Shown: positions 557 through 7,815 of the stretch, piece by piece | Layout: each line of letters begins with the position of its first letter | Position numbering within the stretch: position 1 is the first letter of the stretch | The notes under the pieces: model-generated | What the model was told of the DNA's origin: nothing | Database searches by the model: none | Seen by the model: only the letters and a program-made list of their open reading frames with translations | Assembly (NCBI RefSeq): GCF_000009965.1 | Contig: NC_006624.1 | Location: 690,001 to 722,000 of the forward strand | From: Thermococcus kodakarensis KOD1 | Lineage (GTDB): Archaea > Methanobacteriota_B > Thermococci > Thermococcales > Thermococcaceae | Direction: 5' to 3' | DNA length: 32,000 nucleotides | Position numbers and translations under genes: made by a program

Positions 557-1360
557 TCAGCTCCACGTCTCCGCTATGACGTCGTGCTTGTGGATGCTCT
601 CGTTGCTGATGACCCTCACGTGGATTCTGCCCCTGAAGCGCTCCTTGGCCTTTGCGAATATCTCCCTGGCCACGTCCTCGACGAACTTCGGGTTGGCGAA
701 CATTCCCTGGACGACGGCGTTCTCGTCCACAGTCTTTAGGAGCGTATAGGTCGGGTGGCTGAAGGAGCTTTCGACGACGTCTATCATCTCCTCAAGTGGA
801 ATCTCTTCCTCAAAGGGTGCCCTTATCTCCAGCTCGCCGATGGCCCTCTGGATGTGGGTCTTGCCGTTGTTGTTCGCCATGGCGTGCGGACAGGCCGTGT
901 TTCCTATCACCCTCACCCTGAGAACCTTCTCGAAGGAGCCGTCCTCATTCTTTATGACGCCGACCTCGACGTCGTAGGGTTCGTAGCTGGTCTTTTTACT
1001 GGCCGGAGTGGTTCTCGGAATTATCAGGTGCGTCTTGATCCAGACCTCAGCTCTCTTATGCGGGTGTTTTCCTTCGAGCCTCTCTATGACGGACTTTCCA
1101 AGCTCCTCTAGGGAGCTGTGGACTTTTGCCACTTCCTCCTCGACAGCTTCGCTCATGGCTTCTGTTATGCTCTCCACGAGCCTGCTCATGTGGATGCCCT
1201 TCTTCTCGGCCGGCACGTCTATGGTTACCTCTATGAGCGGAAGGAATGTGTACTCCCTTCCCTTCCAGTTTATCTTGGCGACCGTCCTTAGGTTCGTTAT
1301 GCCGACCCTTCTTAGAGGCTCTCTGATTTCGGGAACTTCTTCCTGTGTCTCGACGAACAT
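557..1360 (-). CDS. mptA: GTP cyclohydrolase MptA (FolE2/GTP cyclohydrolase IV family)
   Basis: 267-aa product with the FolE2/MptA-type layout (…[10 protein letters not shown]…, …[23 protein letters not shown]…, …[10 protein letters not shown]…), as I recognise from archaeal methanopterin/folate-type pterin biosynthesis enzymes. Confidence 0.85.
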
Positions 1361-1388: not shown

Positions 1389-1400
1389 GGTTTTTAAACC
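1389..1400 (-). promoter_or_regulatory. TATA box for mptA, overlapping the mcrC stop codon
   Basis: Minus strand reads GGTTTAAAAACC, centred about 35 nt upstream of the mptA ATG (1360). A GGTGAG Shine-Dalgarno-like element lies in between. This is the only AT-rich element in the 33-nt mcrC-mptA gap. Confidence 0.4.
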
Positions 1401-2827
1401 TCTCCCGAAGAGCAGAGGCCGAGGATGAAAGACTTCAGGTTTTCGGCGGTGTCCTCATCGATAACTACCGAGTTCTTCCTCAGCAGGATTTCGTCCCCTA
1501 TCATCGAAAGCTCGTACCCGAAGACCCCCACCCTCGTCCCGTCGAAGAACTCAAAGGTATCCTCCGGGCGCGCGCTAAAGAGGTTTGGAATCCAGTGGTT
1601 GTAAATTCCCTCGAGCCGCGGGTAGACTAGGAGAACTGGAACTCTTTTTGCCCCCAAATACTCGCTGACAAGGCGGGAGTACGTGTAGGCCTGATAAAGC
1701 TCGTCGCTCTTCCTAACGAGTTTTCTATGGGCCCTATTCTCTCCTCTGTGATACACGTAGAGGTTTCTGTATTTTACCTCAACGACGCAGGTTCCTTCGT
1801 CGGTGCTGACCACTATGTCTGGAAGGGGGTTGCCCATCATGAAGAGTGCGCCAAATCTAGCCTCGATTTCGCCCGCGTTTTTTATGACGTGGGGCAGCTG
1901 AACCTGGAATCTCACCTCTGCTTCGTTGTCGAGGACGGTCTTCAGCGTCCTGTAAACGAGCGTCTCAAAAAGCTCATCCATCCTGATGAACACTCCTGGA
2001 AGGAACTTCCTCGAACCTCCCGCGGCCAGCCCGAAGTACATCACCCGTGCCAGCCTGAAGACCGTTCTGAACCTCTCGTTGAGGTGGTTGAAGGAAACTT
2101 TCCCGAAGTCGCCGGGTTTTGGGTCACCCACGTCCCTGAAGAGGTCGAGAAGTATTCCTCCGACTTTCCTCGTCTCACTCAGGCGGGCAGACTTTACGGC
2201 GACTTCCAGGGCACCCTTTAGAACCCTGTTGAGGGGATTGTCCTCAAGAAGGAGTGAGTACCTGACGGGCAGGTCGGCCTTCCATGCTGGCCTCCGGGCG
2301 AGTTCATTTACAAGGATTCTGCCGCGGACGGTCTGGGAGCTTTCCTCAATCTCCCCGTATTCGTAGTAGAGTCCTCTGGACAGCGCTCTGGAGAGCATGA
2401 GGACGTAGAGATACTTGAAAATTTCGTCCAGCGCCTTCTGCCTGCCGTATTCAAACACCAAGGCCCTAATTTCGCCCGGCTCAAGACCCATCTGGTAGTA
2501 CATATTGAAGAGCTGAAGGAAGAACAGCAGAGAGCGGCCGTCCTCCCTGTCGTACCTGAAGGGCTTTGGCAGTACCTGCACAAGCACAATCCCGTCATCG
2601 CCCAGGTAGTACGCAAACCCCACACTCCCATGGGTCTTCAGGTGGTATTCATCCCTTCTCGGATCGTAGGTGACTGTAAAGACCGGACTGTCGCCGCCGT
2701 AGAGAGAATTCACAGCCTCGGCGAACTTCATTAGTTCTCTTTCCCCTGTCTGAAGCCCGAGTTTCTTCAGTTCTGAGAGTGGCCTGTTCTCAAACTCGTA
2801 GAGGGTTACGACTCTGAAGTCCATCAT
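1394..2827 (-). CDS. mcrC: McrC-like endonuclease subunit of McrBC restriction system
   Basis: 477 aa. The start overlaps the mcrB stop (ATGATGA at 2822-2828 on the minus strand). The C-terminal PD-(D/E)xK-type motif is …LPDIVVSTDEGTCVVEVKYRN… Position immediately downstream of an McrB-type GTPase is the canonical McrBC arrangement. Confidence 0.8.
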   Translation of the reverse strand: MMDFRVVTLYEFENRPLSELKKLGLQTGERELMKFAEAVNSLYGGDSPVFTVTYDPRRDEYHLKTHGSVGFAYYLGDDGIVLVQVLPKPFRYDREDGRSLLFFLQLFNMYYQMGLEPGEIRALVFEYGRQKALDEIFKYLYVLMLSRALSRGLYYEYGEIEESSQTVRGRILVNELARRPAWKADLPVRYSLLLEDNPLNRVLKGALEVAVKSARLSETRKVGGILLDLFRDVGDPKPGDFGKVSFNHLNERFRTVFRLARVMYFGLAAGGSRKFLPGVFIRMDELFETLVYRTLKTVLDNEAEVRFQVQLPHVIKNAGEIEARFGALFMMGNPLPDIVVSTDEGTCVVEVKYRNLYVYHRGENRAHRKLVRKSDELYQAYTYSRLVSEYLGAKRVPVLLVYPRLEGIYNHWIPNLFSARPEDTFEFFDGTRVGVFGYELSMIGDEILLRKNSVVIDEDTAENLKSFILGLCSSGEV

Positions 2828-4953
2828 TTCTCTGTCACCAGCTTGCGGAGGGCTTCAATGAACTCGTCGTCGTCCATCTCGATTATACGCCCTTTCTCGT
2901 CTATGAACCCGAACCCCGGCAGGGAGCGCCTTATTGCCTCCCAGTTGCCGTAGAAGTATTCCTGGAGAAGAGGGAGTATCTTGTAGTAGAAGACGTCCTT
3001 GAGTGCCTTTGCCCTCTCCTCCGGCTTAGCCTTTATGACCTCCCTGAAGTAGCCGTGGCCTATCGTGTAGTCCTTCCCGCGCTCTTCCTCGATAACCCTG
3101 TTGAGCGTCGAGAGGAGGTGCTGAAGGTTTACACCGCCGACTTCGATATCCCCGAGCTCCTCAGGGCGGGGCAGTATCTCAAGGAACGCAAAGCGCCTCC
3201 TGAGGGCCATGTCAAGGAAAGCTATGCTCCTGTCCGTGGAGTTCATTGTCCCGATTATGTAGAGGTTGGGGGGAAGGGCGAAGGGCTCTCTGGAATACGG
3301 CAGGGTTATTTTTGTCTCGTACTCCATTCCGAGCCTTTTATCGGGATCGAGTAGGGTTATGACCTCACCGAGGATCCTTGAGATGTTTCCTCTGTTTATC
3401 TCATCTATTATTAGGTAGAACTTCCCGCGGGGTTTGAACTCGCCTTTTCCTGTTTGAAGGTATTCAAGGACGGCTTCCTTTTTCTTCTTGTAATCGGCCT
3501 CTCCCTCGTCCGGGTGGAGGCCGCGGAAAATCGCCTCGACTGCAAGCCTCTTTAAAATGCCGTCCTCAACGACATAGAGCAGTTTGCCCTCCTTTTCAAC
3601 GGGCCTAAAACCTTCAACGAAGTCCTCATAGCTGTACGACTGGTGGAACGTAACGACCTCAACCTTATCGGCATCTCTTGAGAGATCCAGGGCAAGCTTC
3701 GTTTTTCCGGTTCCAGGGGGTCCGTAGAGGATTACGCCGCCGAACCTTCTGAGAACCTCTTCGAGCTGGGTGAACTGGTCGTAAGTAATGTCCCCCTCCC
3801 CAGGGGCGGCCTGCGTGGAGACGTAAGAGTATAGATAGTTCGAATCCGGGCGAACGTAATAGTAGAACCTGCCGCTGGCGCTTACTTTTCCAGAGGATTT
3901 GCCCAGAACGAGAACGTCTCCGCTCCTAGATATTCCCGAGAACTTTGGGTCAAAGGCTTCTGGGTTGTACCTGCCGAAGACTGTTCTGTCCACAATGTCA
4001 TCCAGTTTTAGAGAGCCCTTTTGAAGGAGGTCTTCGTACGTGACAAAGCCCCCGTACAGATAGCCCCTGAACTGGCCTATAAGCAGGAAAAGGCCCTTTT
4101 CGGTGAACTTCGTGAACACGAGCTCTCCCGGCAGGGGAATTATCCGCGCTTTCTTGGATGTGAGGATGTAGAGCTCCTTCCCGAGCTTCGTCCCGAGGAC
4201 CGCTATTGGCTCGTTGTCCCTCAGTACGATGTCCCCTATTGCGCCTTTTGTCGGGGGCGCTGGGGAATGGGCCGAAATCGTCTCTACTCCGTCCCAGAAT
4301 TCAATCGGCGAATAATATGGGTGAGGCGGATAGTTTATCCTCCCTATCCTGAGGGTGGGGTTTTTCATCCCGGGCTCTTTGAAGGTGTGGAGTATGTAGA
4401 TTTCATCGTCGGTGTCATGGATGGCATGGAAAAAGGCGTAGCCTCCCTGAAGGCGAGGTATGAAGACTGTCTCAAGGTCGGCGGGGGCACTGAAGTCGAG
4501 TCTCATGTCGCCAAAAATAACCACCCTCTCCATGTTGGTCAGGCTCACGTAGATGGGAAGCCTTGAGAAAGTTACCCTTAGGGCGTGCTCTTTTGGGTTT
4601 TCATCCTGAAACGGATAGAGTGCTATTTCCCCAGTACCGCACTTCATAAATACAGCCACGTTTTCAACGCCCGGAAAAACGACAACGTCCTCCTGGCAGG
4701 GAATCCCAACCCCACTCTTCCACCCCAGAAGCGGGTTCCCCTTCGTATCAAAGATGTGGAGAAACCTGGAGTCGTAGTCGTCCCTTATGAGTACCGAGAG
4801 GTATTCCCCGTTCTCTGAAATTCTCATGTCCTCTATAACGTAATCAACGTTGCTGCCCTCGTATTCTTCCCTGAGGCTTTCAGCTATTTTTTCCAGAGCG
4901 TTTTCGGAAATCTCAAATCTGCCCACGTGAACCACCGAGGTAATGTGGGGCAA
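2824..4953 (-). CDS. mcrB: McrB-family AAA+ GTPase with long non-canonical N-terminal domain
   Basis: C-terminal half has Walker A LYGPPGTGKT, Walker B/McrB signature LIIDEINRGNISRILGEVITLLD, and IGTMNSTDRSIAFLDMALRRRF (compare E. coli McrB MNTADRS…ALRRRF). The maximal ORF starts at TTG 4953. GTG at 4935 is more likely because it lies about 26 nt downstream of TATA 4957-4966 (leaderless). Confidence 0.85.
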   Translation of the reverse strand: MPHITSVVHVGRFEISENALEKIAESLREEYEGSNVDYVIEDMRISENGEYLSVLIRDDYDSRFLHIFDTKGNPLLGWKSGVGIPCQEDVVVFPGVENVAVFMKCGTGEIALYPFQDENPKEHALRVTFSRLPIYVSLTNMERVVIFGDMRLDFSAPADLETVFIPRLQGGYAFFHAIHDTDDEIYILHTFKEPGMKNPTLRIGRINYPPHPYYSPIEFWDGVETISAHSPAPPTKGAIGDIVLRDNEPIAVLGTKLGKELYILTSKKARIIPLPGELVFTKFTEKGLFLLIGQFRGYLYGGFVTYEDLLQKGSLKLDDIVDRTVFGRYNPEAFDPKFSGISRSGDVLVLGKSSGKVSASGRFYYYVRPDSNYLYSYVSTQAAPGEGDITYDQFTQLEEVLRRFGGVILYGPPGTGKTKLALDLSRDADKVEVVTFHQSYSYEDFVEGFRPVEKEGKLLYVVEDGILKRLAVEAIFRGLHPDEGEADYKKKKEAVLEYLQTGKGEFKPRGKFYLIIDEINRGNISRILGEVITLLDPDKRLGMEYETKITLPYSREPFALPPNLYIIGTMNSTDRSIAFLDMALRRRFAFLEILPRPEELGDIEVGGVNLQHLLSTLNRVIEEERGKDYTIGHGYFREVIKAKPEERAKALKDVFYYKILPLLQEYFYGNWEAIRRSLPGFGFIDEKGRIIEMDDDEFIEALRKLVTEK

Positions 4954-4956
4954 CTC

Positions 4957-4966
4957 CTATATAACC
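4957..4966 (-). promoter_or_regulatory. TATA box for mcrBC
   Basis: Minus strand reads GGTTATATAG in the 39-nt gap after the upstream gene's stop (4993). Distance to GTG 4935 fits a leaderless mRNA. Confidence 0.45.
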
Positions 4967-4992: not shown

Positions 4993-5412
4993 TCACTCCC
5001 CTCGAAAAGAAGAGTAAGAAGTGGTGTACAAATTTGCCAGGTAGTAGACAGTCCTCAGAGGTATTCCGAGCTTTCTGCTGATCTCTTTCATAGGCACGCC
5101 CTTCCGGGCCAATTCAACGACCTGTTTTATCGTTTTCTCATCGTACTTCTTTGGCCTGCCCCTCGGATAGCTCTCTGGCAAAAGCTCCACCCCAAGCTGA
5201 TTCAGGGCCATGATGACTTTTTGAGACACCTTAGGGTAAAGGCTTGGCGGACACGTGATTTTCCTGACGTTCGGCGAGCGCTCTAGGATTTTGACGACTA
5301 CCTCCTTTGTTGGTCGGAGGTTCACATAGACCTCACTCACATCCTCGTTCAGAACCTCGTCCAGCTTCCTGATGAGTTCCGAATATGTCTTCGCCTTTAC
5401 CCTGACCTTCAT
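4993..5412 (-). CDS. Small DNA-binding protein with C-terminal resolvase/Hin-type HTH (resembles archaeal DUF1699 family)
   Basis: 139 aa. The C-terminus RGRPKKYDEKTIKQVVELARKGVPMKEISRKLGIPLRTVYYL is a textbook GRPxx…HTH_7-type motif. SD GGGGTGA lies 5 nt upstream of the ATG. Only 4 nt separate it from the preceding 414-aa ORF. The DUF1699 assignment is from memory. Confidence 0.7.
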   Translation of the reverse strand: MKVRVKAKTYSELIRKLDEVLNEDVSEVYVNLRPTKEVVVKILERSPNVRKITCPPSLYPKVSQKVIMALNQLGVELLPESYPRGRPKKYDEKTIKQVVELARKGVPMKEISRKLGIPLRTVYYLANLYTTSYSSFRGE

Positions 5413-5416
5413 TCAA

Positions 5417-6661
5417 TCACCCCTGGAGCAGGGCGAGGAACTGCTTGGCTTTGTCGCTCTTCGGCATGAACTTGTCAAACTTCTTCGCCTCTTCCTTGGT
5501 GAACAGGACGTTTGCAAGGCCCGATATCACGAACTTCTTCATGGCCTCGGTAAGCTCGTCCTCGGGAATTCCCAGTATTTCGGCAACCTTCTTCTCGTCG
5601 TAGTTGCTTATGCCGTAGAGTAGAACTCCTCCGAGGAGGTAGTTAGGAACCCCGCTGAGGTCCTTCTTCCTTCCAACGAGCTGTTCCTCCATCTCGCACT
5701 TTCTTATGATGTAGAGGCTTCCCTGGCCTGTTTTGAAGTTTGGATCCCACCTAAAGGGCAGGTCGAGGATTGAGTAGTGGCAGTCGAGACAGCTCTTTAT
5801 CCCCGGGAAAACTCCGAGGGTTTCCCTGTCCGCTGGCGACGTGAGGAAGTAGTAGCGGAATATGTCGAGTCCCAGCAGTTCGGCGCCCTTTTCGGGATTA
5901 AATGAGGCATAGGCCAGTGCCAGGTTGTCCACCGTGTAGTGGTTGTTTATGAGGACGCCCCTTGTCTTCACGAGGCTGAGAACCCTCCAGCGGAAGCGCC
6001 TTCCGAACTGCTTCCTCAGCTCGGCCTCGATGTCTGCATCGGCGGGAAGGCTGACGTGGGCCTTTTTCAGGCGGTTGTTCTCAAAGTACTCCACCTCAAG
6101 CCTTATGCTCCTGGTTTTAACCATTCCCTGTTCCCTGAGCCTGCCCTTGATCTCCTTGAAGGCGTCCCTCACGGAGAGGCTCTCCCTGGCGAGGAGCTTG
6201 AGGACGTCTCCCGAGTACGCCAGGTAAGGCAGTATCTCCACTCTCCCGATGCTGTAGGGCTTTCTGGTGGCCTTCACCTTCTCGTCCTTTATCTCGGTCG
6301 CCTTTATCTCACTGCTCCCCCTCTTGAAGGTGTAGTTGGCGTCGAGAATAGCTAACGCGATTTTGTGGGCCGTTATCGCCGAGCGGAGCCTCTCCAGGGC
6401 GAGCGTCCTGTAGTGCCTCTTTCTGTAGAGCCACTGGAGGTGTGGATCGCGGTTTTTCCTGTCTCCCATCGGTACGGAGGGGCCTCCCTCACCAACTCTG
6501 CGCTCAAGCTCCTCCTCAAGCTCCTCAAGGAGGGAAAGGTTGCGGTTTAGAGTCAGGGCTAACCTGACGGGGTCAAAGTCCTGGAAGAGCTCGCCCAGGT
6601 CTATGCCTATATCGTCCAGTATCTTGTTGACCTGGGCGACGAGTTCTTCCGTCGTCGTCAT
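5417..6661 (-). CDS. Uncharacterised 414-aa protein translationally coupled to top6A
   Basis: ATG overlaps the top6A stop (ATGA at 6658-6661). Native-like codon usage. N-terminal acidic coiled-coil-like segment ([12 protein letters not shown]), a CxxCH…C cluster ([10 protein letters not shown]…RKCEME), and a C-terminal HTH-like segment ([23 protein letters not shown]). I recognise no catalytic motif. Confidence 0.8.
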
Positions 6662-7815
6662 GGCAGGAGATCACCGTTGTTTATCTTTTCTGGGAGATAC
6701 TCCTTCGCGACGAACTCGAGGGACTTGTTGGCTAAAGCCTGCTGTTCAATCCTCACTCCCCACTTGAGGGCGAGCTGGAGCTGTCTCTGCCACTCCTTGT
6801 TCTGGAACCAGGGGTAGTTCATCTCCTCGAGGATTCTCTTGTAGTCTCCCGTTGGGCCGCCCTTCTTGTTCGGTGGAATGCCCTTGAGCTTCTCGGTGAC
6901 GTTCTCAAGGCCGTACTTCTTGATGTCGTCCATGGTCATGCCCACGAACTTCGATTCAGGAGTTGCCAGCTTGTCGCTGAGGTAGGCGAGGTTGATCGAA
7001 CCCTGCTTTATGGTCGAGTATATGTACCAACCGTAGGGGTCGCCATCGGTGAAGACAATGATGGGCAACCCTTCCTCGTAGTGGAGCCTGTGGATCAAAC
7101 GCCTAACCCCACGCGAGGCCTGTCCCTGGGTGGCTATGATGAGGGCGTTCTCCCTCTTCGGGAACTTTTCCTCGATGAGACGGTCGGCCATAGCCGCTGT
7201 CTCGACGACTAAGGCGTAGTCAACGTTTATCTCCGGGAACTGGATGTGCTCCACCGTTCCTGGAACGGCCCATCCACCGCTTCCGAGCCTGCTCGCGTTG
7301 AACTCGTCTTCCCCATCGCGGATGACGATGTCGCCGTAGATGTAACCGCGCCTATCGGCGGTTATGTGCATCTCCTCTCTCAAAACGCCGAACATTCTCT
7401 CAAGGTCTTCGATGATCGGGTCGCTCTCGCTCTGGTCTTCGAAGGTGTTCTCCCTCGTTCCCGGAATGGTGTGCTTGTTGGCGTAGTAGGCTTCACGAAG
7501 GCTCGCGTGCTTGCCCTCGCTCACGAGCCTCTTCACGTAGGCCATTATGAGGAGCGTCTGCATGAACTTTCTCGCATGGGCAACGTTGAGGAAGTAGCGC
7601 CTCGAGAGCTTGTCGCCCATCTTGATGAGCCTCGACTTTTCATCAAAGTATACGTTGCTCAGCCCGCGCATCGGGATGTCGAAGTGGGGGTTTTTGCCGG
7701 CTTTGATGTCCTCAAGGATCCTCCTTGCGTGCTCGTCGAGCATCTTCAGGACTTTCCTGGGGTCGTAGGAGAACTTCTCCTTGGGCCTCTCCCTCTGGAT
7801 TTTGCGCTTAGGCAT
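6658..7815 (-). CDS. top6A: DNA topoisomerase VI subunit A (Spo11 homologue)
   Basis: 385 aa. CAP/5Y region …[11 protein letters not shown]…, Toprim acidic residues …[11 protein letters not shown]… and …[13 protein letters not shown]…. 8-nt overlap with top6B. Confidence 0.95.

Follow-up and report, generated by a model that had tools for sequence, protein, structure and literature searches.

A probable beta-propeller domain at the N-terminus of TK0795, the McrB protein of a Thermococcus kodakarensis McrBC pair

McrBC is the textbook system of modification-dependent restriction, and McrB's N-terminal domain sets its specificity. The McrB N-terminal domains with a described structure are all small nucleic-acid readers of ∼150–190 residues. 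What, then, would be recognised by a McrB that begins with a 370-residue domain of another kind? The question is raised by a gene pair of Thermococcus kodakarensis KOD1 that lies in the 32,000-nucleotide stretch analysed here (NC_006624.1, positions 690,001 to 722,000 of the forward strand; hereafter the window, whose own coordinates are used throughout). The pair consists of the McrB gene TK0795 (2824..4926) and the McrC gene TK0794 (1394..2827), both on the minus strand. We propose, with a probability of roughly 0.6, that the two genes encode a working McrBC motor nuclease in which a propeller of ∼370 residues replaces the small modified-base reader as targeting module, and that the target is most likely a feature of unmodified DNA or DNA coated with a chromatin protein.

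The existence of this system is not new, because the gene has already been annotated and deleted (TK0794–TK0795 is named 'McrBC1' in a study of 2026, PMC13385129). As far as the literature searched shows, the propeller on McrB and its bearing on target recognition are new: the N-terminal fold is unmentioned in that study, in PMC11840125, in PMC7325993, in the McrBC census PMC11090510, in the cryo-EM paper on the T. gammatolerans and Escherichia coli complexes and in a 2026 preprint on LlaI, and a literature search for propeller- or WD40-bearing McrB proteins found nothing relevant.

Fold of the N-terminal domain

An earlier note on this DNA had described the region ahead of the AAA+ core of McrB as ∼395 residues long, beta-rich, possibly propeller-like and unlike the known McrB DNA readers. 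The peptides it quoted are all encoded by the minus-strand open reading frame (ORF) 2824..4953, and the late start of the core holds: in this 709-residue ORF the Pfam AAA_5 match covers residues 406–588, and the match to the T. gammatolerans McrB structure starts at residue 392. The N-terminal region is indeed long, but it has 384 residues (the propeller, residues 1–370, plus a linker of ∼14) and not ∼395, because the start codon is the GTG at 4926. The note had also considered a start far downstream, which would leave the region untranslated; the start moves by only nine codons, the region is conserved, and mass spectrometry of isolated chromosomes has identified TK0795 (79.7 kDa; PMC7325993, 2020).

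The idea of a propeller-like fold is borne out by structure prediction. An AlphaFold2 model of residues 1–375, built from a five-sequence alignment, has a mean predicted local distance difference test score (pLDDT) of 90.9 (all five models at least 83) and a predicted template-modelling score (pTM) of 0.89. The model has an N-terminal strand (residues 2–6) and a helix (residues 8–23), followed by ∼27 strands and two short helices; the 28–29 strands in total fit seven four-stranded blades, as expected of a beta-propeller with its ring of four-stranded antiparallel blades. Foldseek comparison with the PDB gave 134 matches at E ≤ 0.001, and the best 50 of the 134 are all beta-propellers (7- or 8-bladed), including Ipi3 (8PTW), Cdc20 (6Q6G), NirN, prolyl oligopeptidase, DDB1, AztD, BtuG and BamB as well as a designed protein with eight blades. 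These matches have a probability of ∼1.0, E-values down to 7e-8, full-length alignments, template-modelling (TM) scores of 0.35–0.50 and sequence identities of 7–12%. A library of viral protein structures likewise gave propellers as the best fold matches (probability 1.0). On this modelling, residues 1–370 (3817..4926, minus strand) are probably a seven-bladed beta-propeller.

An AlphaFold2 run on the full-length protein (three-sequence alignment) reproduced the N-terminal strand pattern; with a pLDDT of 66.7 and a pTM of 0.51 it is uninformative about the placement of the propeller on the motor. The propeller is followed by a variable acidic linker, TQAAPGEGDITYDQ (residues 371–384; 3775..3816, minus strand), which has a pLDDT of 28–32 in the full-length model and which, in the alignment of homologues, is rich in glutamate and differs in length and sequence.

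The domain resembles none of the readers found on other McrB proteins, as the earlier note had held. The first ∼390 residues have no match in Pfam, NCBIfam or PADLOC, sequence and profile searches of the PDB returned nothing in the N-terminal domain, and there is no McrB-N, YTH, SRA or PUA structure among the best 50 fold matches. In seven members of the family, searches against Pfam at E ≤ 10 found no described reader (DUF3578/ADAM, YTH, PUA/EVE, SRA or B3) in the domain. The families of sequence repeats that build propellers (WD40, PQQ, Kelch, NHL and others) gave no Pfam match either, the best scores (DUF5711, E = 0.27; Beta-prop_Aladin, E = 0.16) being far below the cut-offs, and self-BLAST found no internal repeats in the domain. 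The domain is therefore outside every described class of McrB reader, and it shares with WD40, PQQ and Kelch proteins only the fold class. None of the 7- or 8-bladed propellers compared here (Ipi3, Cdc20, DDB1, NirN, BamB and BtuG) is fused to a McrB AAA+ motor.

Motor, nuclease and relatives

The rest of the pair is conventional. The McrB AAA+ GTPase core with its lid spans residues 385–700 (2827..3774, minus strand) and matches PF07728 (1.3e-17), T. gammatolerans McrB (PDB 6ut3; 43% identity, phmmer E = 2.8e-69) and E. coli McrB (PDB 6hz4; 4.9e-36); the record of a homologue, P0001, lists the McrB_lid family (PF28529). The Walker A motif named in the earlier note is present (GPPGTGKT, residues 402–409), but at 3700..3723 (minus strand) rather than at ∼3703–3726. 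The Walker B motif (LIIDEINR, residues 505–512; 3391..3414, minus strand) and the McrB consensus loop with its NxxD (MNSTDRS, residues 561–567; 3226..3246, minus strand) align with their counterparts in T. gammatolerans McrB; the loop motif has been defined as MNT[A/S]D[R/K]S in the 2026 LlaI preprint, and the NxxD signature is described in PMC11090510. An RRRF arginine cluster in the core is intact, and homologues vary in the upstream elements that contact guanine. TK0795 thus has the AAA_5-type AAA+ domain, the Walker motifs, the MNxxDRS loop and the adjacent, co-oriented McrC expected of a McrB, and has at its N-terminus none of the described types of DNA-binding domain. The pairing of McrB with McrC is repeated in three of the metagenomic loci described below (L001, L003 and L005).

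TK0794 (477 aa) belongs to the McrC family (PF10117, 3e-72; T. gammatolerans McrC, PDB 6ut5_G, 1.6e-24; exact match to WP_052273622.1). Its PD-(D/E)xK nuclease motif, PDIVV...EVKYR (residues 336–354; 1766..1822, minus strand), aligns with PDYVV...DAKYR of T. gammatolerans McrC and is kept in four clade members. One difference is found in the McrC finger (FNHLNERF, residues 246–253; 2069..2092, minus strand). Stimulation of the McrB GTPase has been shown for a basic finger residue, Arg263 of T. gammatolerans McrC and Lys157 of E. coli McrC; the residue aligned with it in TK0794 (ungapped, across a strongly conserved LNERF) is His248, and this histidine is common to all four clade McrCs examined (TK0794 and those of L001, L003 and L005), so that the usual basic finger residue is absent. 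Judged by their motifs, the motor and nuclease parts are intact and canonical, and GTPase and cleavage activities are predicted.

Comparison with the two best-studied systems leads to the same picture. T. gammatolerans McrBC (PDB 6UT3–6UT8) shares with TK0795/TK0794 the core with its Walker A, Walker B and NxxD motifs, a McrC with PD-(D/E)xK and a two-gene operon in Thermococcus. Its McrB differs in that the N-terminal domain is a YTH-like N6-methyladenine (6mA) reader of ∼170–185 residues, to which the 370-residue propeller has no detectable similarity, and its McrC has Arg263 where the TK0794 clade has the histidine; the TK0795 residue near Asn193, a guanine contact in T. gammatolerans McrB, is not conserved in an approximate alignment made by eye. 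E. coli K-12 McrBC has the same motor and nuclease architecture, and the NCBIfam models for McrB (1.4e-36) and McrC (4.9e-17) match, both below their equivalog cut-offs. E. coli McrB, however, flips out 5-methylcytosine by means of its N-terminal DUF3578 (ADAM) domain, and TK0795 has no such domain; E. coli McrC has 348 aa versus 477 aa in TK0794. In every sequence feature tested, then, TK0795 and TK0794 fit the McrB and McrC families, except for the type of the N-terminal domain and the finger residue of McrC.

How widespread is this architecture? A search of 5.8 billion clustered proteins with the domain gave one match, P0001, a 683-aa McrB from a Joint Genome Institute (JGI) metagenome with 55% identity. 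HMMER, run exhaustively on 1.84 billion cluster representatives, returned six matches: P0002, a 707-aa McrB with 44% identity, and otherwise fragments. A seven-member profile run against the 5.8 billion proteins added only further Thermococcus fragments, among them split ORFs of Thermococcus sp. KS-1 that are 97–98% identical. Two Thermococcus metagenome-assembled genomes among the species-representative genomes carry homologues at 59–60% identity, and T. stetteri and T. peptonophilus belong to the cluster at ≥90% identity. All full-length members are propeller–McrB fusions, and these are found in a few Thermococcus lineages. Neither a stand-alone propeller of this family nor a fusion to another protein was found in the 5.8 billion proteins, the 1.84 billion representatives, the genomes or the metagenomes, which answers a question raised by the earlier note: in these collections the domain occurs only fused to McrB. 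Remote homologues outside McrB were sought by single-sequence, profile and exhaustive searches, all of which returned clade members or their fragments only.

Across six full-length homologues the N-terminal domain is 43–75% identical. Where domain and core were compared, identity is 43–73% in the domain versus 59–80% in the core, and among relatives more than 90% identical the substitutions in the domain are mostly conservative. It follows that the domain is translated and subject to purifying selection, and these identities indicate that it evolves faster than the motor. Among the matches listed in a search with the core domain, no McrB core from outside the clade exceeds 51% identity; these matches include no protein longer than 560 aa and omit P0001 and P0002 (cores 59–71% identical), and long McrB architectures are under-represented among them.

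Two groups of database entries need care. Seven entries are pieces of split McrBs, annotated as short 'hypothetical proteins' and 88–98% identical to parts of TK0795: P0164 and P0167 (Thermococcus sp. JCM 11816/KS-1), P0166 and P0168 (a T. peptonophilus assembly), P0006, P0007 and P0056. They represent either pseudogenes with frameshifts or errors of draft assembly. Three other short entries (P0003, P0004 and P0005, from Logan assemblies) are the TK0795 N-terminal domain (3817–4926) with only sense-strand C-to-T changes, their amino-acid changes being S>F, A>V, P>L, T>M/I, H>Y and L>F. They give the impression of having been assembled from T. kodakarensis reads after bisulfite conversion and not of being real variants.

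What the propeller may recognise

A 370-residue propeller is another kind of module than a small reader, and it implies a different logic of recognition, possibly of DNA shape, of composition or of a protein cue. With a motor and a nuclease of canonical type, the pair can be fitted to the standard McrBC scheme. By analogy with the E. coli and T. gammatolerans complexes, the McrB hexamer would display six propellers, which would dock the complex on target DNA while being tethered near the ring by the acidic linker of ∼14 residues; McrC would insert into the McrB ring and stimulate GTP hydrolysis, and translocating complexes would cut the DNA with the PD-ExK site of McrC. Both the role of the propeller as contacting element and the nature of its ligand are inferences of ours. 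A precedent for McrB-family motors that are directed to unmodified DNA by an N-terminal module other than a modified-base reader is provided by the LlaJI/LlaI-type relatives; these differ in having small B3-type domains, defined recognition sequences and sometimes three genes, versus a propeller and two genes here.

Three published data sets bear on the target. In the first (PMC13385129), a markerless deletion of TK0794–TK0795, made in a strain without the two type II restriction enzymes, yielded TS902, the most transformable of the strains (the deletion amplicon, 4.8 kb reduced to 1.3 kb, agrees with the 3,533 bp spanned by the two genes). The pair is one of the main barriers to transformation of T. 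kodakarensis. Transformation rose both with methylated and with unmethylated plasmid, and 'relatively similar' trends were reported with dam+/dcm+ and dam−/dcm− plasmid. This similarity is the first point on which an ordinary Type IV enzyme can be weighed, that is, a McrBC1 in which the propeller is simply an unusual fold for reading a modified base, such as N4-methylcytosine (m4C), context-specific m6A, 5-hydroxymethylcytosine (5hmC) or a viral hypermodification. Such a reader is the default for McrBC systems, and in the same study unmethylated plasmid raised transformation ∼100-fold in all strains, which indicates that methylation matters for some system. A benefit of the deletion that is similar for both kinds of plasmid, however, speaks against a reader of this sort, and so does the finding that methylated plasmid is still degraded by a lysate lacking both McrBC systems (PMC13385129). 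The fold and Pfam searches, too, revealed no likeness to any known modified-base reader. As a lead only, there are WD40 proteins of eukaryotes, DDB2 for example, that recognise DNA with damage or modification. TK0795 also bound unmodified probes (PMC11840125). We consider a modified-base reader quite unlikely, and Dam/Dcm methylation is probably not the target.

These probes make up the second data set (PMC11840125, 2025). TK0795, which its authors call functionally uncharacterised with weak McrB homology, and TrmBL2 were the two proteins kept specifically by unmodified biotinylated probes of the dif region, which reaches 75% AT, and not by a kanR control. Because of the deletion trends and this dif pull-down (PMC13385129, PMC11840125), we favour a target other than Dam/Dcm methylation and an engagement of unmodified AT-rich DNA. 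The target of the propeller is most likely a feature of unmodified DNA (AT-richness or A-tracts) or DNA coated by chromatin proteins. It is possible, if doubtful, that the outcome is modification-independent restriction, with foreign DNA told from self by AT-richness, by A-tract shape or by chromatin state (bare versus TrmBL2- or histone-coated).

The same pull-down is open to a reading in which the propeller is a platform for proteins: it would tether the motor to a chromatin protein (such as TrmBL2, whose filaments lie on AT-rich DNA) or respond to a protein of a virus or plasmid, and the nuclease would be directed by this protein cue. Most of the characterised propellers among the fold matches are scaffolds for protein interaction (WD40 proteins, Cdc20, DDB1), and the domain has an acidic composition, with a net charge of −6 to −12 and an isoelectric point of 5.2–5.6. 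TK0795 and TrmBL2 were retained by the same probes, deletion of TK0795 slightly strengthened a local, TrmBL2-dependent chromosomal boundary (PMC11840125), and in the third data set TK0795 is among the proteins on isolated chromosomes (PMC7325993). On the other side, the characterised N-terminal domains of McrB all bind DNA, TrmBL2 and TK0795 came from two different salt eluates (PMC11840125), and the cassette always consists of McrB and McrC alone, without a conserved partner gene. A protein platform is in our view unlikely.

The chromosomal association (PMC7325993) also bears on a domain that regulates or assembles the complex (by auto-inhibition or control of oligomerisation), or on a system co-opted for chromosome maintenance instead of defence. 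The deletion strains grew less well (PMC13385129), the McrC is without its usual basic finger residue, and a S. aureus relative of McrB is described as co-opted for cell division (PMC10602043). But deletion also raises the success of DNA uptake (PMC13385129), the nuclease motif of McrC is intact and conserved, and the cassette is patchy, sits at a variable junction and is sometimes in fragments, as is typical of defence genes and not of housekeeping genes. A regulatory propeller or a co-opted system is very improbable.

Several points weigh against the propeller-targeted nuclease that we prefer. The number of blades, probably seven, is taken from the count of strands in a predicted model. The fold matches are generic, with their TM scores of at most 0.50 and identities of 7–12%, and therefore give no hint about the ligand. 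An acidic propeller is unusual as a DNA-binding module; the AAA+ core is equally acidic. Net charge was rejected as a test of DNA binding, since a core that translocates on DNA has the same acidity, and for this reason the acidity of the propeller does not settle whether it contacts DNA or protein. Loops assigned to one face of the propeller by their parity are more conserved than those assigned to the other (0.71 versus 0.59, p = 0.02), a weak bias that we do not use as evidence. R48, D50, D52, R54, K95, R319 and K328 are among the loop residues that do not vary. The contact with DNA may belong to the AAA+ ring or to a partner, and its assignment to the propeller is ours. A plasmid from dam−/dcm− E. 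coli may still carry other methylation, so that restriction may yet depend on a modification. TK0795 co-purified with TrmBL2 and may thus have been kept by the AT-rich probes only indirectly (PMC11840125). Finally, the coupling of McrC to the GTPase may differ, because a histidine replaces the stimulatory Arg263.

If the propeller does direct a modification-independent restriction by AT-richness, A-tract shape or chromatin state, archaea would have an innate immunity that senses composition or chromatin by means of an otherwise classical, GTP-driven McrBC nuclease. T. kodakarensis is genetically tractable, and knock-outs, a transformation assay and the DNA pull-down exist, so that the question is directly testable. 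Knowing the target of TK0795 would also allow the rational design of vectors that evade the system without the growth cost of the deletion.

Gene signals and genomic setting

The product translated from the GTG at 4926 (700 aa; stop TGA at 2824–2826) is identical to BAD84984.1/WP_011249746.1/Q5JH85, the record of TK0795. A TTG at 4953, which would give the 709-aa ORF (2824..4953), was rejected as start: the homologues and the database record support GTG 4926, and an exact-sequence look-up found no record of the TTG-initiated version. All homologues in the alignment share the start MGRFE or MGHFE, and they have a Shine–Dalgarno-like GGTG motif 5–9 nt upstream of it; in the window the motif is GGTGG (4932..4936, minus strand), 5 nt before the GTG. 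A TATA-like box, TTATATA (4958..4964, minus strand), lies 32–38 nt upstream of the GTG, directly beside the rejected TTG, and is the putative promoter of the McrBC genes. The homologues have an AT-rich TATA-like element 35–45 nt upstream of the start, at a matching distance in L001–L004. The two genes are adjacent and co-oriented, and the start of McrC and the stop of McrB share 4 nt (ATGA).

We scanned metagenomes with the helix-turn-helix (HTH)/DUF1699 protein encoded upstream of McrB, which gave 42 loci, and mapped the proteins of the window onto 46 loci. The order Top6A–DUF530–HTH–MptA is a conserved Thermococcales backbone. In the window and in only seven out of the 46 loci (L001–L005, L012 and L013, of which L013 is apparently the same contig as L002) the propeller–McrB/McrC pair stands between HTH and MptA; in many loci HTH directly adjoins MptA. 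The cassette has no conserved companion gene in the 46 loci. At its right edge the insertion abuts the TATA-like box of the MptA gene, TTTAAAA (1392..1398, minus strand), within which the McrC stop codon lies; in empty sites this box comes after the HTH stop. The cassette is a 3.5-kb accessory insertion in a conserved housekeeping locus. Other Thermococcales loci, among them L022 (7408–8175) and L037 (7394–8158), have a gene for a predicted membrane protein of ∼255 aa at this junction in place of McrBC, and the junction is therefore a variable spot. A deletion of TK0794–TK0795 that touches TTTAAAA could alter expression of MptA and so add to the reported growth defect.

The neighbouring genes are those of the backbone: MptA (TK0793, 557..1360) on one side and, on the other, the DUF1699 plus HTH_7 protein (TK0796, 4993–5412), a DUF530 protein (TK0797, 5417–6661) and topoisomerase VI A (6658..7815; BAD84987.1, placed at TK0798 by its accession number, three after that of TK0795). 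Further neighbours in the window are a GlmS-like protein, an oligosaccharyltransferase, a subunit of pyruvate:ferredoxin oxidoreductase (POR) and MsrAB, and there are no tRNA or Rfam matches in the window. A defence-island setting was rejected, as these neighbours are housekeeping genes, like the remainder of the window. TK0796 was likewise rejected as a regulator of McrBC: it is a backbone gene that is present in loci without McrBC. Together with TK0797 it adjoins topoisomerase VI in 46 out of 46 loci, an arrangement unrelated to the McrBC cassette.

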